Assembly (NCBI GenBank): GCA_000802045.1
Contig: JUEF01000135.1
Location: 8,287 to 72,286, forward strand
From: Peptococcaceae bacterium BICA1-8
GTDB lineage: Bacteria; Bacillota; Peptococcia; Peptococcales; BICA1-8
Reading direction: 5' to 3'
Length of the DNA: 64,000 nucleotides
Shown here: in pieces, positions 13,074 through 61,596 of the stretch
Position numbering within the stretch: position 1 is the stretch's first letter
Layout of the letters: the number at the start of each line of letters is the position of its first letter
The notes under the pieces: generated by a model
The model's input: the letters and a program-made list of their open reading frames with translations, nothing else
The model's database searches: none
Told to the model about the DNA's origin: nothing
Program-made: the position numbers and the translations under genes

Positions 13074-13985
13074 TTGTTAAATGATAGTATTAGAGTATTT
13101 CTGACAGTTGTTGATAAAAAAAGTTTTTCTAAGGCTGCAAAAGCATTGTTTCTTACACAGCCAGCTATTAGTTTTCAAATTCAGATGCTTGAAGAATATT
13201 ATGGGACAAGACTTTTTGATAGGGTAAGTAGGAATATTTCTTTGACTCAGGCCGGGCATTTATTGCTTGGATATGCTAATCACATGACTAAATTGCAAAG
13301 TGAGCTAGAGAGAGAAATGCAAGAATTAACCGGAACTATCAAAGGACGGCTATTAATCGGTGCCAGTACAACTATTGGTGAATATATTGTTCCCTATCTT
13401 TTAGGTGCATTTAAGAAAAAATATCCTGAGGTAGAGCTCTCCTTAGAGGTTGGTAATTCAGAGGATATTGAAAATAAGATTCACGATACATCATTGGATA
13501 TAGGGCTTGTGGAAGGACCGGTAACCGTTAAGGATATTGAAAAGGAACTGTTTTTAAAAGACCAAATGGTTTTAGTAGTTTCCCATGACCACCCTTGGGC
13601 TCAACTGGATAAAATATCCGTATTTGAATTAGATAAATTCCCCTTTATTTCTAGAGAAAAGGGGTCAGGGACAAGAATTGAGACTGAGCAGCATTTGAAA
13701 AAGACGGGTTTTTCTGCAAATAATTTAAAAGTTATTATGGAATTGGGAAGTACTTCTGCGATAAAAGCAGCAGTGGAAAGCGGCTTAGGTATGTCTATTA
13801 TCTCTAAGTGGGCCGCAAAAGAAAAGGTTAAACTGGGGCAGCTTGCGCAGCTTAATTTCAAGGAGGATATTTTTGAGAGAGATTTTAATGTTATCCACCA
13901 TAAGAAAAAGTTCCGTACCCAGGCAGCTGATGAGTTTCTGCGTTTTATAAAAACAAGTGAGGCTTTAGATTTATTAGAAAGGTAG
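13074..13985 (+). CDS. LysR-family transcriptional regulator (paralog 2)
   Basis: Collinear with the 10922-11833 product along its whole length (same HTH and TGTIKGRL motif). TTG start after AAGGTGG. Confidence 0.85.
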   Translation: MLNDSIRVFLTVVDKKSFSKAAKALFLTQPAISFQIQMLEEYYGTRLFDRVSRNISLTQAGHLLLGYANHMTKLQSELEREMQELTGTIKGRLLIGASTTIGEYIVPYLLGAFKKKYPEVELSLEVGNSEDIENKIHDTSLDIGLVEGPVTVKDIEKELFLKDQMVLVVSHDHPWAQLDKISVFELDKFPFISREKGSGTRIETEQHLKKTGFSANNLKVIMELGSTSAIKAAVESGLGMSIISKWAAKEKVKLGQLAQLNFKEDIFERDFNVIHHKKKFRTQAADEFLRFIKTSEALDLLER

Positions 13986-14040
13986 GATATTCACAAAATT
14001 AGACCTACTGTATCTACAGAGTTAAATATTATTTTATATA

Positions 14041-14086
14041 AATAAAGAAGAAGCACATTAAATAGTGCTTCTTCTTCTTTATTTAT
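14041..14086. terminator. Bidirectional hairpin terminator between convergent genes
   Basis: AATAAAGAAGAAGCAC-ATTAAATA-GTGCTTCTTCTTCTTTATT, flanked by A/T runs on both sides. Confidence 0.75.
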
Positions 14087-14382
14087 TATTTCTTACTTTC
14101 CATCCAAGATATAAATTTAAAGCAGGCGTATCCCCAAAGGAAAAAAAGGCCGAAGAAGAGGAAGGGTTGCTTAGTTCCTAAAGTAATGCTCTTTTCTCCA
14201 AAAAATATTTCTTCCCATCCAGGGAGATCCGTATAATAATATTGACCAGGGCCAAAGTCCAGACCCTCAATCAGACCTATATTATTACGCATTATGTATA
14301 TTGCAACAATTAGTACTGAAGCTAGAACTAGGATACTTAGTATATTTAGCCTGCGGGTCGTAAGGAATTTCTGACTACCCAT
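14086..14382 (-). CDS. Small two-TM membrane protein, family A/B (paralog of 18098-18367)
   Basis: GAGGTG RBS. Shares GxGxYYY, GTKxP, FFxLFFxW and CxxFxxWME motifs with the other small ORF. Confidence 0.7.
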   Translation of the reverse strand: MGSQKFLTTRRLNILSILVLASVLIVAIYIMRNNIGLIEGLDFGPGQYYYTDLPGWEEIFFGEKSITLGTKQPFLFFGLFFLWGYACFKFISWMESKK

Positions 14383-14617
14383 AACAACACCTCAATATGA
14401 TATGATTTTATAACTTTATTATACTGCTAATTGATGAATTGAAAAGATAATTCCAAAAAAACATTATATTAAAAGCTGTCTTCCTTTTAAAGCTCGCCTC
14501 CTTCCAGTGGAGCTAAAACTATGGCAAAGGAATATGTTTTCCGCTTAATAATTAAATTATAAGCATAAAAGGAACTTATGCATATCCCTCTTTTGTACTA
14601 ATTGACGAAATTTGCTG

Positions 14618-14651
14618 AAAAAAAAGGGTCCATTCCGTAAAGAATGGACCC
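14618..14651 (-). terminator. Intrinsic terminator of YeiH paralog 1
   Basis: On the minus strand: GGGTCCATTC-loop-GAATGGACCC followed by T8. Confidence 0.85.
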
Positions 14652-14664
14652 TTTAAAGAAGCAA

Positions 14665-16002
14665 TTATACTGTTAATACTGGAATTGGGAATATAACGCC
14701 ACTGAGTAGTAACCAAGCAACTAATAAGGTTAATACTAGGTTAAAGCTTTGACCTACAATGTATAACCAAAGTGGCTTACCGCCTTGGACAAGCTCAGCC
14801 ATTTCTTTAAAGTTGGACTCAAGGCCGATACAGACAAATGCCATACAGAAGCACCAGCCCTTCCAGCCACCTGTTAGACCTAATAGAGTTTTTGTTTCTT
14901 TAGCACCAATTGCCGGCTCAACAATAAAGGAGAAGATTAAAGACGCACCAATAAAACCAAGGATAAATTTGGGGAAACGGTGCCAGATTTCATCTGCTCC
15001 CACAGAAGGTCCGTCAACATCTTTCTCAACTTTTGTTGCAAAAAATACAGCAATGGCAAAAGCAATAACACCAATTAATACGTTTTGAATCATTTTAACA
15101 AGAGCAGCAACCTGACCCCCTAGTGGCCCTAATGCTTCACCGGCTAATACAACAGCACCTGTTGCGTCAACTGTACCACCGATCCAAGCACCGCCAACCA
15201 TAGGATCCATACCAATAGCTTTAATAAAGATAGGCATACCAACCATCATTAAAACTGTAAAAATTAAGGATAAGCCAATTGCAAAGGTTAAATCGTCCTT
15301 TTTAGCTTTGGAAGCGGCTGCTGCAGCGATAGCGGCTGAAACACCACAAACAGAAGTAGCAGTAGCGATAACTATTACCATAGGCTTACTGGTCATTTTA
15401 AGTATTTTTGTACCATAATGCCACATGAAAATAATTACGATAGGAGTAACGAACCAAGCAATACCTAAACCATAGATACCAAATTTAACTACATTGGAGA
15501 AAAGAACCTCAGCACCCATTAAAACCAGACCGGTTTTAATGTAGTATTCAGTTTTTACAGCAGGCTTTAACCAATCGGGAGTTTTTACAGTATTACTTAC
15601 TAAAAGACCTACTGCTAATGCCCAGAAAGCATACTCTACATATTTTTTCATAGTTGCTTGAGCACCTAATATATAGGCAATTGTAGCTAAGAGGAATATT
15701 ACAGGGAAGGCAATTGCAAATTTAGGTACGTTTTCGCCCATAAATACTAATCCAATTGAAAAAAGAGCAGTTAATACAACCATTGTGATTAGTAAACTAG
15801 CAATATCAAAAGAACCTAAGAAACTTGGAACCTTTTCGGTTCCCCATGTTGCGATCTTGGATGCATTAAACTTAAAAGCTCCTGTGGATTTACTGATAGC
15901 AGCTATTATAATTACGATAAGTCCAAGCCAAATTGCCCACCAGTCTTCTTTCTTTATTAAATCCGACCATTTAAACTTACTAGCTGTTACGACATCTGAC
16001 AT
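14665..16002 (-). CDS. YeiH/UPF0324 family membrane transporter (putative sulfate-exporter family), paralog 1
   Basis: Polytopic, 445 aa. Start moved to MSDVV (16002) by alignment with the paralogs and a GGAGGTG RBS 8 nt upstream. Confidence 0.9.
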   Translation of the reverse strand: MSDVVTASKFKWSDLIKKEDWWAIWLGLIVIIIAAISKSTGAFKFNASKIATWGTEKVPSFLGSFDIASLLITMVVLTALFSIGLVFMGENVPKFAIAFPVIFLLATIAYILGAQATMKKYVEYAFWALAVGLLVSNTVKTPDWLKPAVKTEYYIKTGLVLMGAEVLFSNVVKFGIYGLGIAWFVTPIVIIFMWHYGTKILKMTSKPMVIVIATATSVCGVSAAIAAAAASKAKKDDLTFAIGLSLIFTVLMMVGMPIFIKAIGMDPMVGGAWIGGTVDATGAVVLAGEALGPLGGQVAALVKMIQNVLIGVIAFAIAVFFATKVEKDVDGPSVGADEIWHRFPKFILGFIGASLIFSFIVEPAIGAKETKTLLGLTGGWKGWCFCMAFVCIGLESNFKEMAELVQGGKPLWLYIVGQSFNLVLTLLVAWLLLSGVIFPIPVLTV

Positions 16003-16383
16003 ATAAAGCACCTCCAAAATTTAAAATATTTTATAGGGTATTTGAACAATTAATTTTTTTAATCCCTCCTTATAATTTAGATAAATAACGCCGCGGTACA
16101 GTCATTGAGCATATTGATGCTGTCATACACACAAATTTAGGGTGTGTTTTAATTATAAGTTATCAAAAAAAATCTTTATATCATTCTTTAATACCATCTT
16201 TATTAAATGCATTAGGAAAATTTATTAATTTAGGAAAAAGCATTTGTTGAACTAAAAAATTAAGATAATGCAGGTAGATGAAATTAGACTAAATCTCATA
16301 ATAATAAAATAAAGAGGCCAGATGGCCGCTTTAAAAGGAAATAATTATTCAATTATCATTTTTCGTAGTAGTAGCATTTTAGT

Positions 16384-16420
16384 GAAAAATGGCACCATTC
16401 CTGAAGGAATGGTGCCATTT
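16384..16420 (-). terminator. Intrinsic terminator of YeiH paralog 2
   Basis: On the minus strand: AAATGGCACCATTCC-TTCA-GGAATGGTGCCATTT followed by TT. The stem is related to the paralog 1 terminator, with compensatory changes. Confidence 0.8.
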
Positions 16421-16424
16421 GATA

Positions 16425-17768
16425 TTATACTGTTAATACTGGAATTGGGAAGATAACGCCGCTTAGTAATAACCAGGCTACTAATAAGGTTAATACTAAG
16501 TTAAAGCTTTGTCCCACGACATACAGCCAAAGTGGCTTACCACCTTGAACAAGCTCAGCCATGTCCTTGAAGTTAGACTCAAGACCAATTGATACGAAGG
16601 CCATGCAGAAGCACCATGCTTTCCAACTTCCAGATAAGGAAAGTATAGCTTTAGTATCCTTTGTACCTATTGAAGGCTCAACCAAGAAGGAGAATATTAT
16701 CGATCCTACAATAAAACCAAGAATAAATTTAGGGAAACGGTGCCAAATTTCATCGGCGCCCACAGAGGGTCCATCAACATCTTTTTCAACTTTTGTTGCA
16801 AAAAATACGGCAATGGCAAAAGCGATAACACCAATAAGAACGTTTTGAATCATTTTAACCAGAGCAGCAACTTGACCTGCTAATGGCCCTAAGGTTTCTC
16901 CGGCAAGTACAACTGCACCGGTAGCATCAATGGTTCCACCCATCCATGCTCCACCAAGCATCTCATTCATACCAATAGCTTTAATGAACATAGGCATGAA
17001 GACCATCATTAATACGGTGAAGATAAGGGTTAAACCGATGGCAAAGGTTAAGTCTTCTTTCTTTGCTTTAGAAGCAGCGGCAGCGGCAATAGCTGCAGAA
17101 ACCCCGCAAACCGAAGTAGCTGTCGCAATAACGATAACCATAGGTTTGCTGGTCATTTTCAAGATTTTGGTACCATAATACCACATAAAGACTATAACAA
17201 TTGGAGTAACAAACCAAGCAATACCTAGACCGTAGAAACCAAATTTAACAACATTGGAGAATAGTACTTCAGCACCCATCAGTACAAGACCTGTTTTAAT
17301 ATAGTATTCTGTTTTAACGGCCGGCTTTAGCCACTCGGGGGTTTTTACGGTATTACTTACCGCAAGTCCGACCACTAGTGCCCAGAAGGCGTACTCAATA
17401 TATTTTTTCATTGTGGCTTGAGCACCAAATACATAAGCAATTGTTGCTAAGATAAAAACAACAGGGAAGGCGATTAAGAAGCCTTTCACATCTTCTCCCA
17501 TAACTTTAAGACCGAGAGCAAATAATGCACCTAGTACAATTAGACTGAAAATTAATAAGCCTACTTGACCATTAAAAGCATCCATAATGCTAGGCGCCTT
17601 TTCATTTCCCCAAGTAGCTATTTTGGCGGCCTTAAAGGCGAAAGCACCTGTAAATTTACTTATTGCTGCTAAAGCTAATACAATGAATCCAAGCCAAATT
17701 GCCCACCAATCTTCTTTCTTTGTTAAATCAGACCATTTAAACTTACTAGCTGTTACGATATCTGACAT
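16425..17768 (-). CDS. YeiH/UPF0324 family membrane transporter, paralog 2
   Basis: 447 aa. Very similar to paralog 1, including an identical C-terminus LLSGVIFPIPVLTV. Confidence 0.9.
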   Translation of the reverse strand: MSDIVTASKFKWSDLTKKEDWWAIWLGFIVLALAAISKFTGAFAFKAAKIATWGNEKAPSIMDAFNGQVGLLIFSLIVLGALFALGLKVMGEDVKGFLIAFPVVFILATIAYVFGAQATMKKYIEYAFWALVVGLAVSNTVKTPEWLKPAVKTEYYIKTGLVLMGAEVLFSNVVKFGFYGLGIAWFVTPIVIVFMWYYGTKILKMTSKPMVIVIATATSVCGVSAAIAAAAASKAKKEDLTFAIGLTLIFTVLMMVFMPMFIKAIGMNEMLGGAWMGGTIDATGAVVLAGETLGPLAGQVAALVKMIQNVLIGVIAFAIAVFFATKVEKDVDGPSVGADEIWHRFPKFILGFIVGSIIFSFLVEPSIGTKDTKAILSLSGSWKAWCFCMAFVSIGLESNFKDMAELVQGGKPLWLYVVGQSFNLVLTLLVAWLLLSGVIFPIPVLTV

Positions 17769-18097
17769 TTAATACACCTCCATAAAATTTTAGATAAAGA
17801 CGGAAGAAAAACATAGTAAAAATTTTAGTCAGTCCTCACCACCCATATAAATGACTTATTTGATCGATAAATTATTACGATTATATTATATTAAAAATTG
17901 TTATACACTGATAATCCACCATTCTTACTATTTTTTGACAAAAAAGTAAGTCAGGTAATAAGGGGTTGCGCTATATATAAATTTAGTATAAAAACATAAA
18001 TAGGAAAATACTTGCGGCTACTTGTTTTATTCTTTTTTAGCAGGAAATTGGGTACTTTTAGTTGAAGTAAAGCATGAGGTGATATGAGGTGATAAAT

Positions 18098-18367
18098 ATG
18101 AAGCAGAGGCCAAAAATAAATAGTAAGTTAGGGAAAATGAGTTTATTGATAATTTTAATAATTATAGTAGTAATTGTTTATGCTATTGTAGTAGATCCTT
18201 GGAACATAAGTGAGGCGCCTTACGGCGCTGGGGATTATTATTATGATGAAGTAGAGGGTTATGATTTTAGCATAAGCATAGGTACTAAACATCCTATTAT
18301 ATTTTTCATTTTGTTTTTTGGCTGGGCTTTTGGCTGCTGGCATTTTTTAAAGTGGATGGAAAGATAA
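18098..18367 (+). CDS. Small two-TM membrane protein, family A/B (paralog of 14086-14382)
   Basis: ATG at 18098 lies 5 nt after GAGGTG. Shares motifs with the 14086-14382 product. Confidence 0.7.
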   Translation: MKQRPKINSKLGKMSLLIILIIIVVIVYAIVVDPWNISEAPYGAGDYYYDEVEGYDFSISIGTKHPIIFFILFFGWAFGCWHFLKWMER

Positions 18368-18463
18368 AGCTTGGGATTTTTGATAAAAAGGATCATAATT
18401 AAACTTCGTTATAAAAAAAATAGGTTAATGAGAGAAAAACAGTAATAATAATTGAGTGTAAAG

Positions 18464-18492
18464 AAAAAAAGCCGAGCTATTGCTCGGCTTTA
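18464..18492. terminator. Bidirectional terminator (small ORF on +, YeiH paralog 3 on -)
   Basis: A7-GCCGAGC-TATT-GCTCGGC-TTTAATT. Confidence 0.75.
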
Positions 18493-18499
18493 ATTAATT

Positions 18500-19843
18500 T
18501 TACATTGTTAAATTGGGTATTGGGAAGATAATTCCACTTAACAGCAACCAAGCCACTAAGAGAGTTAATACTAAGTTAAAGGTTTGACCAACAATGTATA
18601 ACATTAATGGCTTGCCGCCTTGTACAAGCTCAGCCATATCTTTAAAGTTAGATTCTAATCCTATACAGGTAAAGGCCAGACAGAAGCACCATCCTCTAAA
18701 GCCTTTAGCTAAGCCCGTAACGCCCTTTGTTCCAGCTGCACCCAAAACGGGTTCTACTATAAAGGAAAAAATGACTGAGGCTGCTATGAAACCAAGGATG
18801 AATTTTGGGAAGCGATGCCAGATTTCACTAGCTCCTACAGCAGGGCCGTCGACATCTTTGTCTACTTTAGTTGCAAAAAATACAGCTATGGCGAAGGCGA
18901 TAACGCCTATAAGTACGTTTTGAATCATTTTAACCATTGCAGCTACTTGACCAGCCAAAGGTCCCAATGCTTCTCCAGCAAGAACAACTGCACCGGTAGC
19001 ATCAATTGTTCCACCCATCCAGGCTCCACCTATCATTTCGTTCATGCCAATAGCTTTAATAATCATAGGCATGAAGATCATCATTATAACTGTAAAAATG
19101 AGGGTTAAACCAATGGCGAAAGTTAAATCTTCTTTTTTAGCTTTAGAAGCTGCAGCAGCGGCAATGGCTGCCGAAACACCACAAACAGAAGTCGCGGTAG
19201 CGATTACAATAATCATGGGTTTGCTAACCATTTTTAATACTCTAGTACCGTAATACCACATAAATATTACTACTATTGGAGTAACAAACCAGGCTATACC
19301 TAATCCGTAAATACCGAATTTTACAATGTTTGAAAAGAGAACTCCAGAACCCATTACAACCAAACCTGTTTTTATATAATACTCTGTCTTAACAGCTGGT
19401 TTTAGCCATTCAGGGGTCTTTATAGTATTGCTAACCAAAAGACCAATAGCCAGCGCCCAAAAAGCGTAGCCTAAATAGTTTTTTATGCCGGCATTAGCTG
19501 AAAAGAGATAGGCTAATGTTGAAAGAATGAATACTACCGGGAAACCAATGAGGAATTTCCCAACATCACCGCCCATTACTTTCAGACCGATAGCGAATAA
19601 AGCGCCTAGTATTATCATTGTTATTAATAATGATGGTAAAGTACCATTAAAGGAATCAAAAATACTAGGTGCTTTCTCTACACCCCAGGTATTAAGTTTA
19701 GCGGCTTTAAAGCTAAAAGTACCAGTAGTAGAACTAATAAATGAGAGAATAAGGATAATAAATCCAAGCCAAATTGCCCACCAATCTTCTTTATTGATAA
19801 GATCTTTCCATTCAAACTTACTAGTCGTTACGACATCAGACAT
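18500..19843 (-). CDS. YeiH/UPF0324 family membrane transporter, paralog 3 (most diverged)
   Basis: 447 aa, collinear with paralogs 1 and 2. AGGAGGTG RBS. Confidence 0.9.
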   Translation of the reverse strand: MSDVVTTSKFEWKDLINKEDWWAIWLGFIILILSFISSTTGTFSFKAAKLNTWGVEKAPSIFDSFNGTLPSLLITMIILGALFAIGLKVMGGDVGKFLIGFPVVFILSTLAYLFSANAGIKNYLGYAFWALAIGLLVSNTIKTPEWLKPAVKTEYYIKTGLVVMGSGVLFSNIVKFGIYGLGIAWFVTPIVVIFMWYYGTRVLKMVSKPMIIVIATATSVCGVSAAIAAAAASKAKKEDLTFAIGLTLIFTVIMMIFMPMIIKAIGMNEMIGGAWMGGTIDATGAVVLAGEALGPLAGQVAAMVKMIQNVLIGVIAFAIAVFFATKVDKDVDGPAVGASEIWHRFPKFILGFIAASVIFSFIVEPVLGAAGTKGVTGLAKGFRGWCFCLAFTCIGLESNFKDMAELVQGGKPLMLYIVGQTFNLVLTLLVAWLLLSGIIFPIPNLTM

Positions 19844-20330
19844 TTAAATACACCTCCTGAAAATTTGAGAAGCTTAATTGAATTAATCTAAAGAACCAGA
19901 CCCTCCTTTCGTTATGTAAAAATAATTACAAACAAGAGAACATTGATTAAAGACAAATAAAAAATACTTATAAATTAATTTAGCTATAACTAATTATAAG
20001 TATAAATTATATTTAATAAAACCCCTCGATTTTACTAGAACTGTAAATTAACTAAAAATAATGACGGAAATTATTTAAAATAATTACTGTTTTGAACTTA
20101 TTGGTATAAAATACTGGTTAATAAAGGGAATGAAAAGGTGCATGTTAAAATTAATTTTAAATATAGAGTAAAGAAGTAAACGTTATATAATATAAAATTA
20201 TTAATAATATAAAAAATTCTTATATATATACTTTTGATAGTTATGTAGGTTTTCGAAATCCTTGTGTAGAATAGTACAAATTAACTATGAAAATACATAG
20301 TACTTCCTACCTAATTGGAGTTGATTTGAT

Positions 20331-21662
20331 GTGAAAAATAATTTAGAAGACTATTATGTGAATATCAAATGGATGGCTTTTGTTATTCCAGTCCTATGGG
20401 TAGGCATTTATGAAGTGTTACGGTTTCAAATTCTAGGCAATATATTTACGCCAATCATTAATAGTGTCATATTAATATGTTCAGTTGGTTTTTTCGGACT
20501 TATTTTTTCGGCATATTTGTTTAGAAAGATTAGGACTATTCATAATTCACTTTTTTTAGAACAGCAAAAACTGAAAACTATCTTTCATCATACATCTGAC
20601 GGAATTATCGTTTTAGGAGAGAATTGTCAGATCCTTGATATCAACCCAGCCGTAGAAAAATTAACAGGGTGGAAAGCTAAAGAGGTAATTAAGAAAATTA
20701 CTTGTGAAGAAATGAACCGGTGTTTAAAGAGTACAGAGGCCTGTTGGAATTCTCAAAATCCCGAAGGCTGCATGAATGTAGACTGTGGGCATAGGGAGTG
20801 CTGGGGTAAGACTTGCCTGGAAAAACAAATTTCAGTTCCCCATGTAGAGATGTGTCTTGTTTGTAAAAATGGTAAGAAAATTAAGGTTGCCGCCAGTTAT
20901 TCTTACATACCTGCTGTAGGCGAGGAAAAGCCGTTGGTAAAGCTTGTTCTAAGAGATATCTCTGAAAAAAAAGAATTTGAAAAGGCTATTCAAAATTATG
21001 CTACTTTAGAGGAAAGATACAGACTAGCCAGAGAAATGCATGATGGATTAGCGCAAGCTTTAGTTTATTTAAATATTAAGGCTTATAATATTCAAAAGAA
21101 TTTAGAAAAGCATGGTAACCATGATTCTATTATTAATGACCTAGTTGAAATAAGGCAGGTTACCCAGGAGGCTGTTAATGAAGTCCGTCAGAATATTTTT
21201 GATTTAAAAACACCTCCTAGAGATGAAACTAGTTGTTTTAGGGTATGGATTGAGGATTATCTAAAAAACTTTGGTTTTATAAATCATTTAGATACTGAGT
21301 TTTTCTGTAATTGTCAGGCAGCACTTATATTACCTACTGATGTCAAAGTTCAATTAATTAGGATTATTCAGGAGGCTTTAACTAATATCAGAAAGCATGC
21401 TCGAGCTACAAAAATAAATATCTTTTTAACAAAGAATGAGAAGAAATTAATTATTAAAATTACTGATAATGGAAAAGGTATTGATTTAACTACTCTAAAT
21501 ATGGACACAAAGGAACATTTCGGATTAACTATAATGAAGGAAAGAGCTCAAATTATCGGAGGAGATATAAAAATTATTCCAGGTGAAGCCCGAGGAACTC
21601 TTGTAGAATTGACTTTGCCATTGATTAATGGATATGAAAGAAATAATAGGATAGCAAATTAG
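20331..21662 (+). CDS. Membrane sensor histidine kinase, HisKA_3/NarL-partner type, with a PAS-like domain carrying a nine-Cys insert
   Basis: Two N-terminal TM helices, H-box REMHDGLAQAL, and HATPase motifs (DNGKGI, GLTIMKERA). Cys-rich segment encoded at 20703-20864. GTG start. Confidence 0.85.
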   Translation: MKNNLEDYYVNIKWMAFVIPVLWVGIYEVLRFQILGNIFTPIINSVILICSVGFFGLIFSAYLFRKIRTIHNSLFLEQQKLKTIFHHTSDGIIVLGENCQILDINPAVEKLTGWKAKEVIKKITCEEMNRCLKSTEACWNSQNPEGCMNVDCGHRECWGKTCLEKQISVPHVEMCLVCKNGKKIKVAASYSYIPAVGEEKPLVKLVLRDISEKKEFEKAIQNYATLEERYRLAREMHDGLAQALVYLNIKAYNIQKNLEKHGNHDSIINDLVEIRQVTQEAVNEVRQNIFDLKTPPRDETSCFRVWIEDYLKNFGFINHLDTEFFCNCQAALILPTDVKVQLIRIIQEALTNIRKHARATKINIFLTKNEKKLIIKITDNGKGIDLTTLNMDTKEHFGLTIMKERAQIIGGDIKIIPGEARGTLVELTLPLINGYERNNRIAN

Positions 21663-21693
21663 TTGTACCGGCTGATTTAAAGGGGGCATTGAA

Positions 21694-22347
21694 ATGTTAA
21701 AGTTTAAAGTACTTTTAGTCGATGACCACGCTTTATTCCGTAAAGGGATGGCCAGTTTATTAAATGAACTTAAGGAACTAGAAATAATTGGCGAAGCAAG
21801 TAATGGTAAAGAAGGGGTTGAGAAAGCTAGAGAACTCAAGCCAGATATTATTATCATGGATGTGGAAATGCCTGAGATGACAGGAGTAGAGGCAGTAAAA
21901 GTTATTAAAGAGGAACTTCCACAGTGTAAAGTAGTTATGCTAACAATATCTGAGGATGATGACAATTTATTTAAATCAATTAAAAATGGAGCTCAAGGGT
22001 ATTTATTAAAGAGTATGGACCCTGATGATTTAATTAGACAAATAAAAGATTTGTTAAAGGGTGAGGCTGCTTTATCAAAGACGATAGCTAGTAAAATTTT
22101 AAAAGAATTTGCAAACCTTTCTAAAAAGCAAAAGGAAGTAGATTATCATAAATTTAATCTGACTGAAAGAGAGGGAGAGGTTTTAATTCAGGTAGCTCAG
22201 GGAATTACTAATAAGGAGATTGCTCTTGAACTGGCGATTACTGAGAATACAGTTAAGAATCACCTCTGCAATATCATGGAAAAACTCCACCTCCAGAATC
22301 GTGTCCAGTTAGCGACTTTTGCCTGGCGGGAAGGGTTTGTTGAATAA
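21694..22347 (+). CDS. NarL/LuxR-family response regulator
   Basis: Receiver domain (VLLVDDH...DIIIMDVEMPEMTG) plus a LuxR-type HTH (LTEREGEVLIQVAQGITNKEIA). Confidence 0.9.
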   Translation: MLKFKVLLVDDHALFRKGMASLLNELKELEIIGEASNGKEGVEKARELKPDIIIMDVEMPEMTGVEAVKVIKEELPQCKVVMLTISEDDDNLFKSIKNGAQGYLLKSMDPDDLIRQIKDLLKGEAALSKTIASKILKEFANLSKKQKEVDYHKFNLTEREGEVLIQVAQGITNKEIALELAITENTVKNHLCNIMEKLHLQNRVQLATFAWREGFVE

Positions 22348-22369
22348 TAGGTATATTGGATAAATATTT

Positions 22370-22412
22370 AAGATGATACTATTCTTAATTAAGAAAGTAT
22401 CATCTTTGTTTT
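22370..22412 (+). terminator. Intrinsic terminator
   Basis: AAGATGATACTATTCTT-AATT-AAGAAAGTATCATCTT followed by TGTTTT. Confidence 0.8.
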
Positions 22413-22526
22413 ATGGTCGTTATGGCTAGATAGAGTTAAATCGCCAAAAGGGGTTTAACATATGAAGTGAAGGGTATAATAATTTATAATATTTTAGTGA
22501 TAGCTAAGTTTAGAGGGGGATAATAT

Positions 22527-23399
22527 ATGGAATTTCCTCAATGGGATATTCTAATTATCGGTTGTGGGCCCGCTGGGCTTTCAGCGGCGGTAAATGCGAC
22601 AATTCGTAACAAAAAGGCAATAGTATATGGCGGAGAGTTTTGCAGTCCCAAGCTTCATAAAGCTCCACATGTCAATAACTATTTAGGTTTCTGGGATGTA
22701 TCAGGAGAAGAATTGCGGAAAAAATATCTCAATCATGTTCAACAGTTAGATATAAAAATGGAATGTCATAAAATTGATAATATTTACCCTGCCGGGAAAT
22801 CTTTTAATGTTGTCAGTAAGGGCAATATGATTATGTGTAATGCAATAATAATTGCAGTAGGCTTGCAAAATCCTAAATACCTGCCAGGAGAAGAGGAACT
22901 GTTGGGCAAGGGTGTGGGTTATTGTGCTACCTGTGATGGCCCTTTGTATAAAGGGAAAAAGGTTGCAGTAATTGGTTATAACACAGAGGCAGAGGAAGAG
23001 GTTAACTATTTGGCCGGGTTAGCTAGCCAAGTTATATATCTTCCGTTGTATCAAGGGCTAGGAAGTATCGACAGTAGAGTTCGAATTTTAAATGAAAGAC
23101 CCAAGGCTCTATTAGGTACAGATAGATTACAAGCACTAGAAACGGAAGGGGAAACCCTAGAACTAGATGGATTATTTATTATTCGGGATAGTGTTCCTCC
23201 AGCTCAGCTTTTGCCTGGCTTGGAGCTTGAGGAAAACGCAATAGTAGTAAATAGAAAAATGTCTACAAATATAACCGGTGTATTTGCTGCCGGTGACTGC
23301 ACCGGTGCCCCTTATCAGCTGGCCAAAGCAGTAGGTGAAGGAGCAGTTGCAGGACTAAGTGCTGTGAGTTATTTGGAAGAAATGAATAAGGGAAAGTAG
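22527..23399 (+). CDS. Thioredoxin-reductase-like flavoprotein with a CATC redox motif but no recognisable NADPH-binding motifs
   Basis: IIGCGPAGLSAA FAD fingerprint and a CATCDG active site. The position of GGGxSA reads GYNTEA, and no HRRxxxR motif follows. Confidence 0.8.
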   Translation: MEFPQWDILIIGCGPAGLSAAVNATIRNKKAIVYGGEFCSPKLHKAPHVNNYLGFWDVSGEELRKKYLNHVQQLDIKMECHKIDNIYPAGKSFNVVSKGNMIMCNAIIIAVGLQNPKYLPGEEELLGKGVGYCATCDGPLYKGKKVAVIGYNTEAEEEVNYLAGLASQVIYLPLYQGLGSIDSRVRILNERPKALLGTDRLQALETEGETLELDGLFIIRDSVPPAQLLPGLELEENAIVVNRKMSTNITGVFAAGDCTGAPYQLAKAVGEGAVAGLSAVSYLEEMNKGK

Positions 23400-25436: not shown

Positions 25437-25574
25437 GTCGGAAATACTTAGGGTCTAGCTTGAGCGTCTGACAATACTATGGGGACAAATTGTTGCGTCT
25501 GACATCGCTAATGGGTTGAGTTTTAGGGTCTGACAGTACTATGGGGACATTTTATTGCGTTTGACACTAGCTTT
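25437..25574 (+). repeat. Array of five ~31-bp units with GTCTGACA core (direct orientation)
   Basis: Core starts at 25437 (degenerate), 25466, 25497, 25528 and 25559. Spacings are 29, 31, 31 and 31 bp. Confidence 0.9.
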
Positions 25575-25584
25575 GAGATTTTTT

Positions 25585-25660
25585 CTGGGTACTGAACCCT
25601 GGGCCCTGGACACTAAGCACTTGAACACCGAGCACTTGAGCACAGCGCTCTGGACACGAA
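25585..25660 (+). repeat. CTGGG(T/C)ACTG...GGACACGAA low-complexity cassette (GAGCACT/GGACACT words)
   Basis: CTGGGTACTGAACCCTGGGCCCTGGACACTAAGCACTTGAACACCGAGCACTTGAGCACAGCGCTCTGGACACGAA. Confidence 0.85.
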
Positions 25661-25772
25661 TTTATCAGACGAGATATCTTCGCCCAGAAGTATGATCCCA
25701 GAAGTAAATGTCATTTTTCCCTTGATATTTGAATAAAAATTACTTAGTACTCTGCAAAGTGAGGGGAAACTT

Positions 25773-28526
25773 ATGGCAAATAGATTTTGGTACAATATGC
25801 ATGATTTAAAAGTTTTAGAAGAATTTCAGGTTGATGTAAAAAAGGGTCTAGACTCAAAAGAGGCTCAGCGCAGGTTGGAGTTGGTGGGTTTTAATCAATT
25901 GCGGGAAAAAGTAAAAACATCACCAATTAAAATGTTTTTTAATCAGTTCAAGGATTTTATGGTTATCGTGCTTTTAGCAGCTACAATTATCTCTGGTTTT
26001 TTAGGGGAGTATGCTGATGCTATTACCATAATGGCTATAGTCATTCTTAATTCAATTTTAGGTTTTGTGCAGGAATACCGAGCAGAGAAGTCTATGGAAG
26101 CTTTAAAAAAATTAATAGCTCCTGAAGCAATGGTTATCAGAGATGGTATAGAAAAGAAAATCCCTGCCCGGGAACTAGTTCCAGGTGAACTGGTTTTATT
26201 AGAAACCGGTGTTATAATTCCTGCGGATTTGCGTTTATTAGAAACAATTCAAATGGAAATAGAAGAATCTTCTTTGACTGGTGAATCTGTTCCTGCTAAA
26301 AAAATAGCCAGTGCAATATTTGAAACAAATACCAGCTTAGGTGATAGGAAGAATATGGCCTATATGGGTACTACCGTAACCCGGGGCAAAGGAATGGGCA
26401 TAGTTGTTGATACTGGTATGCAAACGGAAATGGGGCAGATTGCGGGACTAATTCAAAAGGTTGGTGATGAACAAACTCCGCTCCAAAGAAGGTTAGAACA
26501 ATTAGGCAGATGGCTAGTAGCTTTTTGTCTGTTAATTGTGCTGGTAGTTGTTGTTACAGGAATTCTCCGGGGTGAGCCTATTTACCAAATGTTCTTAGTG
26601 GGAGTCAGTCTGGCGGTGGCTGCTATTCCTGAAGGATTGCCTGCAATTGTTACAATTGCTTTAGCCGTAGGAGTTCAAAAAATGCTTAAAAGAAGAGCAA
26701 TTATTAGGAAGCTGCCTGCAGTAGAAACCTTGGGATGTGCCACAGTAATATGTTCTGATAAAACAGGTACCCTTACTCAAAATGAGATGACAGTGCGCAG
26801 GATTGTTATTAGTAATGAAACAATTCAAATTACAGGGGAAGGTTATGATCCTAAAGGAGAGGTGGTTGTTCCCGGGGATAAATCCCGTATGATGAGGAAT
26901 AAGGAATCCTTAAATATAGCCTTTAAAATTGCCGCCTTGTGTAATAACTCAAAGCTAAGAAAAACAGAAACAGTTATAGCCGGAATTTTTAGAAAGAAAA
27001 GCTCGAATCCTTGGCAGGTTTTAGGAGACCCCACTGAAGGAGCTCTCCTAGTTTTAGCAGCAAAAGCAGGTTTTTGGAGAGAACGTGTAGAAAAAGATGA
27101 GCAAAGAGTTTATGAAATGCCCTTCGATTCTGAACGCAAGAGAATGTCTGTTATCTATCAAAATAAAGATAAGCTTAACATTTATACCAAAGGGGCCCCG
27201 GATATTGTATTAGAAAATTGCAAATATGTTTGGTGGGAAGGGAAAATCGTTCTTTTAAACCGAGAACTAAAACAAAAAATATTAGAAAATAATGATAAGA
27301 TGGCTAATGAAGCCCTTCGAGTTTTAGCTCTAGCTTATAAACAAATTTCTGCCAATTTTGACTATGAAAGAAATGAGGCAGAGATTGAAAATGACCTGAT
27401 TTTTGTAGGATTAGCTGGAATGATTGATCCGCCCCGTCCTGCAGCAATTAAAGCTGTAGCTGTATGTAAAAACGCAGGGATAAAAACAGTTATGATAACC
27501 GGGGACCATAAAATCACTGCCCAGGCAATTGGTAAAGAACTAAAAATTTATAATGATCAGGACCTTATTTTAACGGGCAGCCAATTAGATGAAATGCCAG
27601 ACCCGGAATTAAATAAAATTATTAATAATGTAACCGTTTATGCCAGAGTATCACCAAAACATAAGCTCAGGATTGTTAAAGCCCTCAAAAAGCGGGGACA
27701 TGTGGTTGCAATGACAGGGGACGGAGTAAATGATGCCCCAGCAATTAAAGAGGCGGATATTGGAATTTCCATGGGAATAAATGGTACCGATGTAACAAAG
27801 GAATCTTCCTCTATGATTTTAGGGGATGATAATTTTGCAACTATTGTAGCTGCCGTTGAGGAAGGTCGGGCTATTTATGATAATATCAGGAAATTCATTA
27901 GATATCTTTTATCCTGTAATGTAGGTGAAGTTTTAACAATGTTTTTTGCTTCATTATTGGGATTGCCTTTGCCTTTATTGCCAATACAGATATTGTGGGT
28001 TAACTTAGTAACTGATGGATTGCCAGCAATGGCTTTAGGTGTTGATACAGCTGATCCTGATATCATGTACAGAAAACCTAGACATCCGAAAGAAAGCATT
28101 TTTGCCTATGGCTTGGCTAGACGCATAGCAGTAAGGGGAACATTAATAGGTGTCGGTACCCTTTTAGTATTTATGATAGGTTATTACTTAAATAAGAATT
28201 TAGATATAGCTAGAACTATGGCTTTTACAACACTTGTTTTCTCCCAGCTGTTTCATGTTTTTGATTGTCGTTCGGAAAAATATTCTATTTTTGAATTAGG
28301 CTTTTTCACCAACCCATTTTTAGTAGGCGCCGTAAGCTGTTCGGTAATAATGCATTTAATGGTAATTTATTTACCCTTTTTCCAAAAAATATTCAAAACT
28401 ACTCCTCTCTCTTTTAATAGCTGGCTGATTATAATTGCCGTTTCCGGTGGGTTAACAATTATGCAGAACGTGTATCGGAGCTTGAAAAGATATTATTTGA
28501 ATTTAGGGAGAACATTAAGGGCTTGA
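25773..28526 (+). CDS. yloB: P-type Ca2+-transporting ATPase (SERCA/YloB type)
   Basis: CSDKTGTLT phosphorylation motif plus TGDGVNDAPA, TGES and PEGL motifs. 917 aa. Confidence 0.9.
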   Translation: MANRFWYNMHDLKVLEEFQVDVKKGLDSKEAQRRLELVGFNQLREKVKTSPIKMFFNQFKDFMVIVLLAATIISGFLGEYADAITIMAIVILNSILGFVQEYRAEKSMEALKKLIAPEAMVIRDGIEKKIPARELVPGELVLLETGVIIPADLRLLETIQMEIEESSLTGESVPAKKIASAIFETNTSLGDRKNMAYMGTTVTRGKGMGIVVDTGMQTEMGQIAGLIQKVGDEQTPLQRRLEQLGRWLVAFCLLIVLVVVVTGILRGEPIYQMFLVGVSLAVAAIPEGLPAIVTIALAVGVQKMLKRRAIIRKLPAVETLGCATVICSDKTGTLTQNEMTVRRIVISNETIQITGEGYDPKGEVVVPGDKSRMMRNKESLNIAFKIAALCNNSKLRKTETVIAGIFRKKSSNPWQVLGDPTEGALLVLAAKAGFWRERVEKDEQRVYEMPFDSERKRMSVIYQNKDKLNIYTKGAPDIVLENCKYVWWEGKIVLLNRELKQKILENNDKMANEALRVLALAYKQISANFDYERNEAEIENDLIFVGLAGMIDPPRPAAIKAVAVCKNAGIKTVMITGDHKITAQAIGKELKIYNDQDLILTGSQLDEMPDPELNKIINNVTVYARVSPKHKLRIVKALKKRGHVVAMTGDGVNDAPAIKEADIGISMGINGTDVTKESSSMILGDDNFATIVAAVEEGRAIYDNIRKFIRYLLSCNVGEVLTMFFASLLGLPLPLLPIQILWVNLVTDGLPAMALGVDTADPDIMYRKPRHPKESIFAYGLARRIAVRGTLIGVGTLLVFMIGYYLNKNLDIARTMAFTTLVFSQLFHVFDCRSEKYSIFELGFFTNPFLVGAVSCSVIMHLMVIYLPFFQKIFKTTPLSFNSWLIIIAVSGGLTIMQNVYRSLKRYYLNLGRTLRA

Positions 28527-28552
28527 CATTTACTCACAGGTTAATATATTGG

Positions 28553-28655
28553 GTCTGACATATGCTTGGGGGTGAAATATCGCGTCTGACAATACTCCTG
28601 GGTGAACATTTTGCGTCTGACATTTTACTTTTGGGTTGAGATGCTGCGTCTGATG
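28553..28655 (+). repeat. Array of four ~31-bp GTCTGACA units (direct orientation)
   Basis: Cores at 28553, 28584, 28615 and 28648 (the last reads GTCTGATG). Confidence 0.9.
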
Positions 28656-28658
28656 AAT

Positions 28659-28696
28659 GGTGCTCTGTGCTCAGTGCTCAGTGTCCAGTGCCCAGT
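28659..28696 (-). repeat. Heptamer block GTGCTCA/GTGTCCA, the inverted copy of the CTGGGCACTGGACACTGAGCAC cassette
   Basis: The reverse complement reads ACTGGGCACTGGACACTGAGCACTGAGCACAGAGCACC. Confidence 0.85.
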
Positions 28697-28707
28697 AAAA
28701 AACTAAT

Positions 28708-28872
28708 AAAGCTAGTGTCAGACGCAATAAATTGTCCCCATAGTACTGTCAGACCTTACAGCTTAACCCATGAGTAATTGTCAGACGCCCAAGCTAGACC
28801 CTTGAGTATTGTCCGACCCTAAAACTTAACCTATAAGTAGATGTCAGAAACGCAAAAGCTAGACCCCTAAGT
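28708..28872 (-). repeat. Array of five ~31-bp GTCTGACA units in inverted orientation
   Basis: TGTCAGAC-type cores at 28716, 28747, 28779, 28810 (TGTCCGAC) and 28842. 28708-28755 is 46/48 identical to the reverse complement of 25527-25574. Confidence 0.9.
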
Positions 28873-28885
28873 AGAAAGGAAGTGT

Positions 28886-30778: not shown

Positions 30779-30888
30779 AATAGTGTGACGGCTATGTGGC
30801 TTACTGAATGACAGTGTGTAAGCTTAAGGGATATACAAATTGTCAGTGCTACAGTGCTACAGAAATTTAGTTGGTTTGTTTATTCTCC

Positions 30889-30916
30889 TAGTCACTAGTC
30901 ACTAGTCACCAGTAAC
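30889..30916 (+). repeat. Heptamer tandem TAGTCAC x3 plus a degenerate fourth unit, 18 nt upstream of the remA start
   Basis: TAGTCACTAGTCACTAGTCACCAGTAAC. An octamer pair AGTGCTAC x2 lies at 30845-30860. Confidence 0.9.
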
Positions 30917-32035: not shown

Positions 32036-32086
32036 GTCTATTAGTGGGCGAGACTTTTGGGGAATCGATGGAGGGCAGTTTTATGG

Positions 32087-32240
32087 GATGCATCTACTCA
32101 TAGGCTTTACTGCAAGATGCATCAGATGAATGCCAATTTTTTTGATGCATCCTTTAAGTTAGACCGCAGAGCAGATGCCTCAATAGGATTTTACATGCAT
32201 AGGATGCATCCCAAAATGTATGCCAAAATAGGATTCTAGG
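32087..32240 (+). repeat. ~29-bp periodic array with GATGCATC palindromic core
   Basis: Cores at 32087, 32116, 32144, 32174 (GATGCCTC) and 32203. Preceded by TATTAGTGGGCGAG at 32038-32051. Confidence 0.85.
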
Positions 32241-34708: not shown

Positions 34709-34966
34709 TATTAAACCACGGGCCCCAATGGGGCACACGGATAAATGTCCTGTTCTATCAGGTATTCTTTGTAGGGGCGCGCATTGCGCGTCCGACTTCA
34801 CTTCTTAGTCCATAATATGCTAAAATACAATTAACAAAAAATATCACCATGGACCATTCGCCAAACTAACATGACACAAAACGTCATCAACAGAATATGA
34901 ATATAGTTTAATCCCTAAATAATTAATCTGCGTTAACCGTGTGCCCTGTAGGGGCCCGTGGTTTGA
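34709..34966. mobile_element. Second MITE/BIME-like element (258 bp) with the same inverted ends as 8620-8810 and a nested GTAGGGGCGCGCATTGCGCG hairpin
   Basis: Left end is ATTAAACCACGGGCCCCAATGGGGCACACGGATA. The reverse complement of the right end is ATCAAACCACGGGCCCCTACAGGGCACACGGTTA. The interior is unrelated to the 8.6-kb copy. Confidence 0.6.
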
Positions 34967-34979
34967 TAAAATGCTTTTT

Positions 34980-35048
34980 CTGGGCACTGGACACTGAGGA
35001 CTGGTCACGAACCCCGAAAATTTCTACGGACTCGCCCACTCGCCCACT
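34980..35048 (+). repeat. CTGGGCACTG...CACGAACCCCGAAAA cassette plus octamer pair CGCCCACT x2, ending 25 nt before the priA start
   Basis: CTGGGCACTGGACACTGAGGACTGGTCACGAACCCCGAAAATTTCTACGGACTCGCCCACTCGCCCACT. Confidence 0.85.
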
Positions 35049-49991: not shown

Positions 49992-50011
49992 TATATTAAA
50001 GTTAATAATTT

Positions 50012-50121
50012 ACTCTTTCGGGGTTAGGTGCAATTCCTTACCGGCGGTATAGCCCGCGAGCCAAATGGCAGATCCGGTTTAATTCCGGAGCCGACAGTTA
50101 AAGTCTGGATGGAAGAAAGAG
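50012..50121 (+). promoter_or_regulatory. FMN riboswitch (RFN element) aptamer
   Basis: Matches the RFN core: CTCTTTCGGGGTTAGGTGCAATTCCTTACCGGCGGT..AGCCCGCGAGCC...GGTTTAATTCCGGAGCCGACAGTTAAAGTCTGGATGGAAGAAAGAG. The P1 stem closes CTCTTTC with GAAAGAG. Confidence 0.92.
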
Positions 50122-50176
50122 ATTGATTACTATTCATTGCATTTTTGCTTTTGAATGGTAATTATCTTGTTTTATT

Positions 50177-50212
50177 GCCCCGAAGCTCTTATTGCTTCGG
50201 GGCTTATTTGTG
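50177..50212 (+). terminator. Riboswitch expression-platform terminator
   Basis: GCCCCGAAGC-TCTTATT-GCTTCGGGGC followed by TTATTTGTG. Confidence 0.75.
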
Positions 50213-50214
50213 TA

Positions 50215-50500
50215 GTTTTATTAGTGGGCGAGTGGGCGAGAAGTATTATTTAACCACGGGCCCCTCCGGGGCACACCGATAAACACTGTTAAACGATAAG
50301 TGACTAAATTAATGGTTGATGCATCCCTTAAGTTAGACCTTTGAGCAGATGCATCCTGTAATTTTCACTTGCATCGGGTGCCTCCTAATCGGTGACACGG
50401 TAGCACGTCAAGGAAAGCTAGACATTCATGTTCACACGTCCTTACTAGTCACAGATCCCCGGCCACTGAGTACGAATCCCGAAAGACTGTCCCCTAATAC
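50215..50500 (+). repeat. Composite of dispersed repeat modules between the riboswitch terminator and ribU
   Basis: TAGTGGGCGAGTGGGCGAG (50222-50240). Solo ATTTAACCACGGGCCCCTCCGGGGCACACCGAT end (50248-50281). GATGCATC units (50318, 50348). AAGCTAGAC, TAGTCAC, TACGAATCCCGAAAG and TGTCCCC words (50415-50495). Confidence 0.85.
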
Positions 50501-50523
50501 AAAAAACGAGGAGCGATTTTAAA

Positions 50524-51087: not shown

Positions 51088-51096
51088 GTTACTGGC

Positions 51097-51125
51097 TAGT
51101 GACTAGTGACTAGTGACTGGTGACT
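51097..51125 (-). repeat. Heptamer tandem TAGTGAC x3 plus TGGTGAC (reverse complement of the TAGTCAC family)
   Basis: TAGTGACTAGTGACTAGTGACTGGTGACT. Confidence 0.9.
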
Positions 51126-51131
51126 GGTAAT

Positions 51132-51166: not shown

Positions 51167-51276
51167 TAGCCGATAGTCAATAGACTATAGTAGAAGTTTT
51201 TAATGACCTGCTTAGCAGGTCTTTTCTTTATCATAAATTGACTATATACTGATTGTTTTTCATAAAGGTCCTTTAT

Positions 51277-51347
51277 CTGGGCACTAGTCACTGAACAACT
51301 AGTCACTGAACAACTAGTCACTGAACAACTGGACACGAAACCAAAAA
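51277..51347 (+). repeat. CTGGGCACT cassette containing an exact 15-bp tandem repeat x3, ending GGACACGAAACCAAAAA
   Basis: AGTCACTGAACAACT at 51286, 51301 and 51316 (exact copies). Confidence 0.95.
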
Positions 51348-59243: not shown

Positions 59244-59358
59244 AAACTGACTAAGTGTCAGTTTTAAGGCTAAGGCTAAGGCCTGTGTTTATGTGTTTCC
59301 ATTGTTGTATATTTCTGGGCACTGAACACCAGTCACCGGGCACGATAACCCGAAAAAT
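59243..59358 (+). repeat. Repeat insertion inside the mmd operon: hairpin, AAGGCT x3 and a CTGGGCACTG...CACGATAACCCGAAAAAT cassette
   Basis: AAAACTGAC-TAAGT-GTCAGTTTT (59243-59265). AAGGCTAAGGCTAAGGCC (59266-59283). Cassette at 59315-59358. Confidence 0.85.
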
Positions 59359-59404
59359 CCACTATCACACTAAAACACTTACGTTACAAGGAGGGGATTA
59401 CAGA

Positions 59405-61551: not shown

Positions 61552-61596
61552 AAAAAAGTGACTAGTCACCAGTCACTAGTAACTAGTCACTTTTTT
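61552..61596. repeat. Perfect 15-bp-stem hairpin built from TAGTCAC-family words and flanked by A6/T6
   Basis: AAAAAAGTGACTAGT-CACCAGTCACTAGTA-ACTAGTCACTTTTTT, ending 21 nt before the next start codon. Confidence 0.85.

Follow-up and report, generated by a model that had tools for sequence, protein, structure and literature searches.

The 64,000-nt stretch of Peptococcaceae bacterium BICA1-8 analysed here (contig JUEF01000135.1 of assembly GCA_000802045.1, positions 8,287 to 72,286 of the forward strand), hereafter the window, carries a short repeated cassette between its genes, one copy of which stands before priA. The cassette is a short dispersed module of a family of intergenic heptamer arrays in BICA1-8 and related uncultured Peptococcales/Clostridia. 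These arrays aim 5' to 3' at the nearest gene end, with sense arrays standing before the ribosome-binding site (RBS) and antisense arrays just past the stop codon. Judged from the sequences compared, the arrays behave as simple sequence repeats that are prone to slippage but keep their sites across species, and they are the Firmicute counterpart of the heptamer repeats of cyanobacteria. An initial annotation had described a discrete cassette upstream of five genes; it turned out to be one flavour of a general heptamer tandem-repeat family instead.

All six copies reported by that annotation were recovered at their coordinates. The + strand of the window had the head, CTGGG(C/T)ACT, at four places, 25585, 34980, 51277 and 59315, each of them between genes, and the tail, ACGAWnCCCGAAA, had + strand matches at 35007, 50472, 51335 and 59342. 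The pattern CTGGGCACTGRACAC-N11-CACGA, allowing up to three mismatches, gave five matches in the window compared with 0.00 in 100 shuffles, and a position weight matrix (PWM) of the heptamer found nine arrays compared with 0.18 in shuffled sequence. The copies are thus far above the shuffled level, and the earlier opinion that they are not random junk was borne out. Two reverse-strand matches to CTGGGCACT (48826 and 17385) were within open reading frames (ORFs) and look like chance. The body of the cassette is a tandem array of in-register heptamers (CTGGGCA CTGGACA ...) with the unit consensus C-Y-R-R-N-C-A, examples being CTGGGCA, CTGGACA and CTAGTCA. The variable word repeats listed earlier as separate words are this same array, merely read in another phase, and the segment 35030-35048, which had been counted into the priA cassette, is a separate octamer repeat (ACTCGCCC x2.4 by Tandem Repeats Finder, TRF). 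Further intergenic arrays of period 7 were detected in the window by TRF at 28660, 29725, 30888, 37533, 51096, 51136 and 61557. Array length had a clear mode of four units (approximately 10 of 19 copies), and the arrays found with the PWM spanned from 3 to 14 units. Variation within arrays was uneven: position 5 differed in 49 of the 98 adjacent-unit pairs and position 1 was invariant (chi-square p=2e-14), which suggests a constraint on the heptamer unit. Coding potential of the arrays was rejected, since units of 7 nt cannot keep a reading frame.

The arrays were sorted into two classes. Class 1 is stand-alone and unstructured, and consists of a T-run, the array and a CGAWACCCGAAAA tail. In class 2 the array is the apical loop of a 200-350-nt, imperfectly palindromic element built of 31-nt GTCTGAC repeats. 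The class 1 cassette before priA (34975..35020, +) comprises a T-run at 34975-34979, four heptamers at 34980-35007 (CTGGGCA CTGGACA CTGAGGA CTGGTCA) and the tail CGAACCCCGAAAA at 35008-35020. Another (59312..59358, +) is placed in the methylmalonyl-CoA decarboxylase (mmd) operon between the carboxyltransferase and gamma genes, and reads CTGGGCA CTGAACA CCAGTCA CCGGGCA followed by CGATAACCCGAAAAAT. The third (51272..51347, +), between the ribU terminator and hslO, reads CTGGGCA, three times CTAGTCA CTGAACAA, then CTGGACA and CGAAACCAAAAA, and was reported by TRF as a 15-mer x3.2. The copy before ribU (50445..50485, +) is partial, without T-run or CTGGGCA head; it is located 3' of a flavin mononucleotide (FMN) riboswitch and reads CTAGTCA CAGATCC CCGGCCA CTGAGTA, then CGAATCCCGAAAG. 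Class 2 in the window is represented by the two copies around yloB. The upstream one (25579..25660, +), a T-run with about ten heptamers, forms the apex of a palindromic composite (~25440-25740) made of 31-nt GCGTCTGACA repeats, and the antisense downstream one (28659..28703, -; reverse match 28661-28695), which in reverse complement reads CTGGGCA CTGGACA CTGAGCA CTGAGCA CAGAGCA, forms the apex of the composite 28524-28873. The distances from cassette to start codon had been given correctly as 25 nt for priA, 47 nt for the gamma gene (ATG 59405), 39 nt for ribU, 113 nt for yloB and 176 nt for hslO (ATG 51523), and Pfam agreed with the names of the downstream genes, namely P-type ATPase (yloB-like), PriA, ECF S-component (ribU-like), Hsp33 and OAD gamma. 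Three related arrays were also found: a sense array of three CTAGTCA and one CCAGTAA (30888..30915, +), which ends 8 nt 5' of the remA Shine-Dalgarno sequence; an antisense CTAGTCA/CCAGTCA array (51093..51127, -), which begins 5 nt past the ribU stop codon; and a sense CTAGTCA-type array (61562..61589, +), which adjoins the RBS of a DUF1858 gene on its 5' side. The Shine-Dalgarno sequence, of GGAGG type, comes after the arrays.

The Hsp33 proteins of the window and of BICA1-8 are 100% identical, and JGI metagenome 3300002838 contains 10 kb of the window. Syntenic loci of relatives were fetched through PriA and Hsp33 homologues, and the region from Clostridiaceae bacterium BRH_c20a (L132) through a DUF4129 protein. 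Regions L122 and L127 are from a relative at 91-96% protein identity (PriA 91% in L122), and L126 and L128 from a relative at 70-80%. Altogether BICA1-8 and its relatives held about 30 arrays in roughly 250 kb, all intergenic except one weak hit. Every cassette site was occupied in L122/L127, with flanks 76-87% identical and with a differing number of units. The priA site has four units in the window and two in L122, seen as a 14-nt gap in the alignment; the gamma site has four in the window and five in L127 (CAGGGCA and four CTGGGCA), with an identical tail; the ribU site has four and, in L127, five; and at the hslO site the 15-mer occurs three times in the window and once in L127. The array 5' of yloB counts 10, 4 and 4 units, and the one 3' of it 5, 14 and 3 units, in the window, L122 and L126, respectively. 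Because orthologous arrays differ by whole heptamer units, these differences point to slipped-strand mispairing. In L126/L128, where PriA identity is 70%, both yloB-flanking arrays and the remA array were kept in the same orientation with other units and other unit numbers. The priA, hslO and gamma sites held other array types or none, the gamma site in L128 having an antisense CTAGTCA-type array instead. Arrays with different units occupied the remA site also in L122 and L126, the DUF1858 array was partly kept in L127, and the antisense array on the stop side of ribU (51093-51127) was absent at the L127 ortholog. In a test for insertion, all sites were occupied in the relatives at 91-96%, and the intergenic regions of those at 70-80% were too diverged for boundaries to be drawn; neither a target-site duplication nor a link to a transposase could be shown for the heptamer arrays. 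The PWM scan found no arrays in the regions from L129 and Desulfonispora thiosulfatigenes (L131). The intergenic regions of the latter are short, those of the BICA1-8 lineage much longer.

Beyond these loci, the pattern scan of a genome collection gave 42 matches, of which two were real, Clostridiaceae bacterium BRH_c20a and Clostridia bacterium AS01afH2WH_13. The metagenome scan gave three matches, comprising one true relative (L004) and two contigs of one organism with 58% GC. A viral scan with the 15-mer head, which serves as a negative control, gave 75 matches, all of them coding or chance. The copies of the window itself were not among the matches of these scans. In the 58% GC organism the heptamers CTGGGCA CTGGACA CTGGTCG CTTCGCA CGAGTCG CGAATCA stand upstream of a gene (arrays at L002 1401-1498 and 1774-1811, and L003 492-534 and 660-758). 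Since this organism is unrelated, arrays of the CTGGNCA type are not confined to the Peptococcaceae lineage.

The five cassettes upstream of genes had been noted as sharing the orientation of the downstream gene. This is true of the window but does not stand as a rule, as complete antisense head-to-tail cassettes exist after dapF (L126) and upstream of the DUF4129 gene of BRH_c20a. Moreover, five of five is weakly informative, because the + strand holds nearly all genes and is the leading strand; GC skew was positive along the whole + strand of the window. A check of orientation bias had been proposed, and in the regions sampled, with orthologous sites taken once, it gave 15 sense to 6 antisense arrays (p=0.08), an overall bias that is weak and not significant, whereas near starts the bias was clear. 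Of the arrays no more than 70 nt from a start codon, 12 were sense and none was antisense (binomial p=0.0005), and the relative intergenic position differed between sense and antisense arrays (Mann-Whitney p=0.002, Fisher p=0.005). Antisense arrays were located 5-31 nt past the upstream stop codon at ribU, ribD, dapF (L126) and mmdA (L128), and those at yloB and before the DUF4129 gene occupied the stop-proximal part of the intergenic region. One array scored as antisense by the PWM, at L130 9946, is really a sense array, CTAGTCA CCAGTCA CTAGCAC, 12 nt 5' of the hslO Shine-Dalgarno sequence.

A 5'-untranslated region (5'-UTR) or promoter-associated function had been suggested for the cassette. 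Leader location was supported by riboswitch and operon context, whereas promoter association was not, since promoter-like hexamers were no commoner than in shuffles. The leader of ribU contains an FMN riboswitch at 50010..50124 (+; Rfam RF00050, 116.8 bits) and, between it and ribU, a terminator-like hairpin at 50177-50203. The ribU copy sits between the riboswitch and the RBS both in the window and in L127, and BRH_c20a has a full cassette in the interval from another FMN riboswitch (L132 15223-15357) to ribD (start 15865). The gamma copy is intra-operonic, within the mmd operon. As copies lie behind riboswitches and within an operon, the arrays are probably transcribed spacers rather than promoters, provided that these riboswitches and this operon function as they do in other bacteria. 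A side observation concerns the riboswitch leaders themselves. The gap from the FMN riboswitch to ribU or ribD is 400-550 nt and full of repeat modules (window 50125-50523, L127 1455-2005, L132 15358-15864), an unusually long leader, which raises the question whether regulation still works.

RNA folding of class 1 copies, in ten segments of 48-91 nt taken on both strands and seven of 150 nt, gave no significant or shared structure (z from -1.6 to +2.1), and Rfam gave no match other than the FMN riboswitches. A closing stem between T-run+CTGGG and CCCGAAAA was considered and discarded, as it appeared only in the minimum-free-energy fold of the priA copy and is not conserved; a weak TTTTCTGGG/CCCGAAAA pairing was likewise seen in the priA copy fold only. 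A sigma-54 promoter was rejected by eye on its -24/-12 spacing, which does not fit. Four G3 tracts or a predicted G-quadruplex (G4) were present in only one of 16 copies. In the ribD leader (L132 15772-15844) sense CTGG-type and CCAG-type arrays are nearly complementary, at six of seven positions per unit, and pair in the predicted fold, which is not significant (z=-1.1).

Mazel et al. are said to have described in 1990 the heptamers CCCCAGT, TTGGTCA and CAACAGT of the cyanobacterial short tandemly repeated repetitive (STRR) sequences. With STRR1 read as CTGGGGA and STRR2 as TTGGTCA, CTGGGCA and CTGGTCA of the present arrays are close to them. The host differs, being a low-GC Firmicute and not a cyanobacterium, the units are close and not identical, they are heterogeneous within an array, and here they have conserved flanks (T-run, CGAWACCCGAAAA) or stand at a palindrome apex. 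Shared with STRRs, and with the long simple sequence repeats (LSSRs) of prokaryotes (Mrazek, 2007, as summarised in PMC4679880), are tandem 7-nt units, many dispersed intergenic arrays per genome and length variation by whole units. TAACTGA repeats of marine Beggiatoaceae, cyanobacteria and Bacteroidetes form sets of 2-6 units in forward orientation just 5' of start codons, with 7-nt indels between strains, occasional reverse sets near the upstream ORF and no functional theme among downstream genes, and in Beggiatoaceae they usually take the place of a recognisable RBS (MacGregor, 2015, PMC4679880). The arrays of BICA1-8 are similar in their forward placement next to start codons (12:0 within 70 nt), 7-nt indels, lack of a downstream theme and ACTG core; they differ in their units, in the canonical GGAGG Shine-Dalgarno sequence after the array and in the consistent antisense set past stop codons. 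Heptamers GGGNATC / GGGGA(C/T)T of Xanthomonas and Nostoc are over-represented in non-coding DNA between co-directional genes, prefer four units, change strand depending on whether they precede an ORF or follow a stop, and are mostly transcribed (Rehm, 2015, PMC4692102). The concentration in non-coding DNA between co-directional genes, the preference for four units, the start/stop-dependent choice of strand (p=0.002-0.005) and, probably, transcription are shared by the arrays described here, whereas the polarity is reversed, the G-richer strand here being the coding strand upstream of ORFs, and 15 of 16 copies have no G4 potential. The (ATCTTTC)n repeat of hmw1A/hmw2A in Haemophilus influenzae, a 5'-UTR repeat of at least 11 units at a single contingency locus, forms a hairpin cleaved by RNase III and has a proven effect on expression (PMC12721329). 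It is the only mechanistically solved case among the heptamer repeats compared, and resembles the present arrays in placing a heptamer in a leader (here probably transcribed), in slippage of copy number and, for class 2, in the heptamer being an arm of a long hairpin. In contrast, the arrays of BICA1-8 occupy many housekeeping loci and mostly have four units. Modular palindromic intergenic repeats are also familiar, such as pneumococcal BOX A-B(n)-C, repetitive extragenic palindromes and bacterial interspersed mosaic elements (REP/BIME) and elements like miniature inverted-repeat transposable elements (MITEs). They too are dispersed, intergenic and transcribed, with conserved ends and variable internal tandem modules, and class 2 shares their hairpins; they are unlike the arrays in that the internal module here is only 7 nt and class 1 has no usable terminal inverted repeat or fold. 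Within the library of papers searched, we found no report of such heptamer repeats in Firmicutes.

We prefer, tentatively and at somewhat less than even chances, the reading that the single-stranded heptamer register acts in mRNA as a protein-binding or tuning element. The arrays would be transcribed within mRNA leaders, intercistronic spacers and 3' regions, and we propose that transcription would thereby constrain their orientation relative to the adjacent coding region. They would act neither by folding nor as promoters. The single-stranded register would offer a multivalent platform to an abundant single-strand-binding protein with a 7-nt footprint, of cold-shock-domain or S1-like type, and slippage in unit number would be a quantitative tuning knob. 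CspB, according to work cited in PMC4679880, binds with one protein molecule per heptamer. Around yloB and ribD, which have sense and antisense copies, a long duplex could arise by pairing of the 5' flank with the 3' flank.

Several points weigh against this reading. The proposed protein is hypothetical, and transcription of the arrays we infer from riboswitch and operon context only. Predicted RBS accessibility did not differ between native and shuffled arrays (over 15 leaders the mean z was -0.05, p=0.89, in a run with the DUF1858 start coordinate mis-set). Outside arrays, intergenic CACTG and CAGTG were equally frequent (4 vs 4), giving no sign of selection on a single motif, and the downstream genes have no common functional theme. 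Taken over all arrays, the preference for sense orientation falls short of significance (15:6, p=0.08), and the polarity of transcription and that of replication are inseparable in this material because all sampled genes are co-oriented with replication. The position-specific constraint on the unit is partly an effect of ascertainment, as the PWM favours such units. The sample consists of a few syntenic regions of contigs from metagenome-assembled genomes, not whole genomes, and arrays were assigned to genes by hand. Finally, while a tuning element is a tentative choice, tolerated repeat DNA filtered by selection is a quite possible alternative.

According to that alternative the arrays are non-adaptive or selfish repeat DNA, which arises and persists by slippage, spreads by recombination or mobilisation and has no function of its own, and their polarity reflects purifying selection only. 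An example of a harmful orientation would be the antisense one, in which each unit puts GTG and GGTGA, start-like and Shine-Dalgarno-like, beside the true RBS. Such a history would agree with the hypervariable copy number between relatives at 91-96%, where arrays come and go, and with intergenic regions which are crowded by five or more further repeat families and greatly exceed those of Desulfonispora in length. It would agree as well with the lack of an RNA structure, an RBS effect or regulon logic in our analyses and of motif enrichment outside arrays, and we know of no demonstrated function for the cyanobacterial heptamer STRRs since their description in 1990. It is less easily reconciled with sites and orientation that persist down to PriA identity of 70% while the surrounding intergenic sequence diverges, with units that differ within an array yet retain C1, C6 and A7, with the clear mode of four units, or with arrays tolerated 3-25 nt from the Shine-Dalgarno sequence of essential genes in several species.

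For the gene-bracketing pairs at yloB and ribD only, the flanks of one transcript might pair over a long stretch, giving a duplex that RNase III would process or that would stabilise the mRNA, comparable to the stems of rRNA precursors or the hmw 5'-UTR heptamer hairpin; we consider this unlikely. Both class 2 composites bracket yloB as inverted repeats in three species. The arms in the window (25508-25584/28698-28774) are 86% complementary, the values within each genome being 86-92%, and within a genome the arms share species-specific tail variants. The two arms of one genome resemble each other more than they do the arms of the other species. The ribD gene of BRH_c20a is bracketed by 32-nt arms with 88% complementarity. 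Predicted energies of the 5'-3' duplex are far beyond those of shuffles, at -168 vs -51 kcal/mol for yloB and -57 vs -19 kcal/mol for ribD, and the 5'-UTR hairpin of hmw1A cleaved by RNase III is a precedent (PMC12721329). However, each yloB flank also folds on itself and would compete with long-range pairing, the composites folding as long hairpins with z=-5.8 (L122), -3.4 (L126) and -7.6 (window 28520-28880). The similarity of the yloB arms within genomes indicates that they have either undergone gene conversion with each other or been selected to pair, and conversion between inverted DNA repeats would explain it equally well. The majority of copies (priA, gamma, hslO, remA) lack a partner, complementarity within the ribU pair is not significant, and co-transcription of both arms is an assumption. 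The direct repeats with a palindromic GTCTGAC core from which the composites are built are 31-32 nt long (GCGTCTGACAatactatggggaca...), form mirror-image sets around heptamer arrays and give long hairpins. They were observed in the window at 25464-25566, 28524-28623 and 28713-28873, and in relatives at L122 300-640 and 3560-3900, L126 200-560 and 3396-3740 and L132 ~17010-17130; in three species they are kept on either side of yloB, and they occur also at other loci.

A bolder proposal, to which we give still less chance, is that the oriented arrays are a lineage-wide post-transcriptional code, either read by a sequence-specific single-strand-binding protein or paired into RNase III substrates. 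Sense (CACUG-NN)n tracts would stand in leaders and their complements past stop codons, and the ACTG core common to STRRs and the TAACTGA repeats of Beggiatoa would be the mark of one ancient heptamer-recognition system shared by several phyla. If true, this would give the 35-year-old STRR puzzle a mechanism.

A role at the level of DNA, as a promoter, an UP-like element or an array of transcription-factor binding sites, appears very improbable. There are -10-like boxes before some heads, namely TGATAAAAT before priA (34964-34972, of extended type, found by eye and not significant), TAAAAT before ribD and TATAAT in L117, and the last unit contains TGGACA, which resembles a -35 hexamer. Yet the boxes occur in about 4 of 10 copies where by our own estimate about two are expected in AT-rich DNA, promoter-like sites are at shuffle frequency, copies lie within an operon and 3' of riboswitch terminators, antisense copies lie past stop codons, and repeats with a period of 7 bp do not stay in phase with the DNA helix. 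A G4-forming nature, as in the GGGNATC heptamers known from Xanthomonas and Nostoc, can practically be dismissed. The mode of four units fits a need for four G-tracts (PMC4692102), and in L127 the gamma copy contains five GGG tracts and its minimum-free-energy fold includes a G4; but only one of 16 copies shows four G3 tracts or a predicted G4, and arrays of the CTAGTCA type have no G-tracts at all.

Other repeats accompany the arrays. Octamer tandem repeats (CAGTGCTA, ACTCGCCC/AGTGGGCG, CACTNNNN, CTGTAGNN) occur beside the heptamer arrays, their position conserved between species, at 30844-30862, 35030-35048, 50223-50240 and 59360-59385 in the window and 8890-8925 in L128. The octamer before priA (35030..35048, +) has one copy in L122 and two in L126, and its reverse-complement copies, AGTGGGCG, are those at 50223-50240. 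A MITE-like element occupies 34712-34970 and 8618-8812, with a solo end at 50245-50285; its terminal inverted repeats measure about 30 nt (TAAACCACGGGCCCCnnnnGGGGCACACGGAT). Its priA copy is kept in L122, and where one strand of its hairpin has A.C mismatches the other has G.U pairs, a hint that the hairpin forms in RNA of one strand only. The GC-rich palindromic motif GGGGCGCGCATTGCGCGTCC was found as an inverted pair (23400-23420/23558-23580) around about 140 nt and solo at 34772-34795. Dispersed repeats at 1859-2040, 32080-32230 and 50320-50370 include a unit of about 60 nt (GGGACACACCTCC...CCGAGGAATGTCCCC) in three copies, and repeats containing GATGCATCC. The block 13074-23399, whose minus strand carries three PF03601 paralogues for membrane proteins and whose AT-rich gaps are free of all the repeat families, may be a later acquisition.

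Repeats of this kind break metagenome assemblies and mislead gene callers. The PriA orthologue of L122 was called as 851 amino acids instead of 814; the 37 surplus residues come from the gap with the cassette, into which the gene caller had prolonged the ORF at its 5' end (L122 10001-10111). Heptamers at gene ends are known from cyanobacteria, Beggiatoaceae, Bacteroidetes and Xanthomonas, and the same phenomenon in a lineage of anaerobic Firmicutes therefore argues that it is general. What the Firmicute case adds are closely similar units, conserved sites, start/stop polarity and a preference for four units without G4 potential, which removes the popular G4 explanation of that preference for this lineage. 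The copies adjoining riboswitches and the pairs that bracket yloB and ribD are concrete cases in which one may ask whether such repeats act in mRNA.

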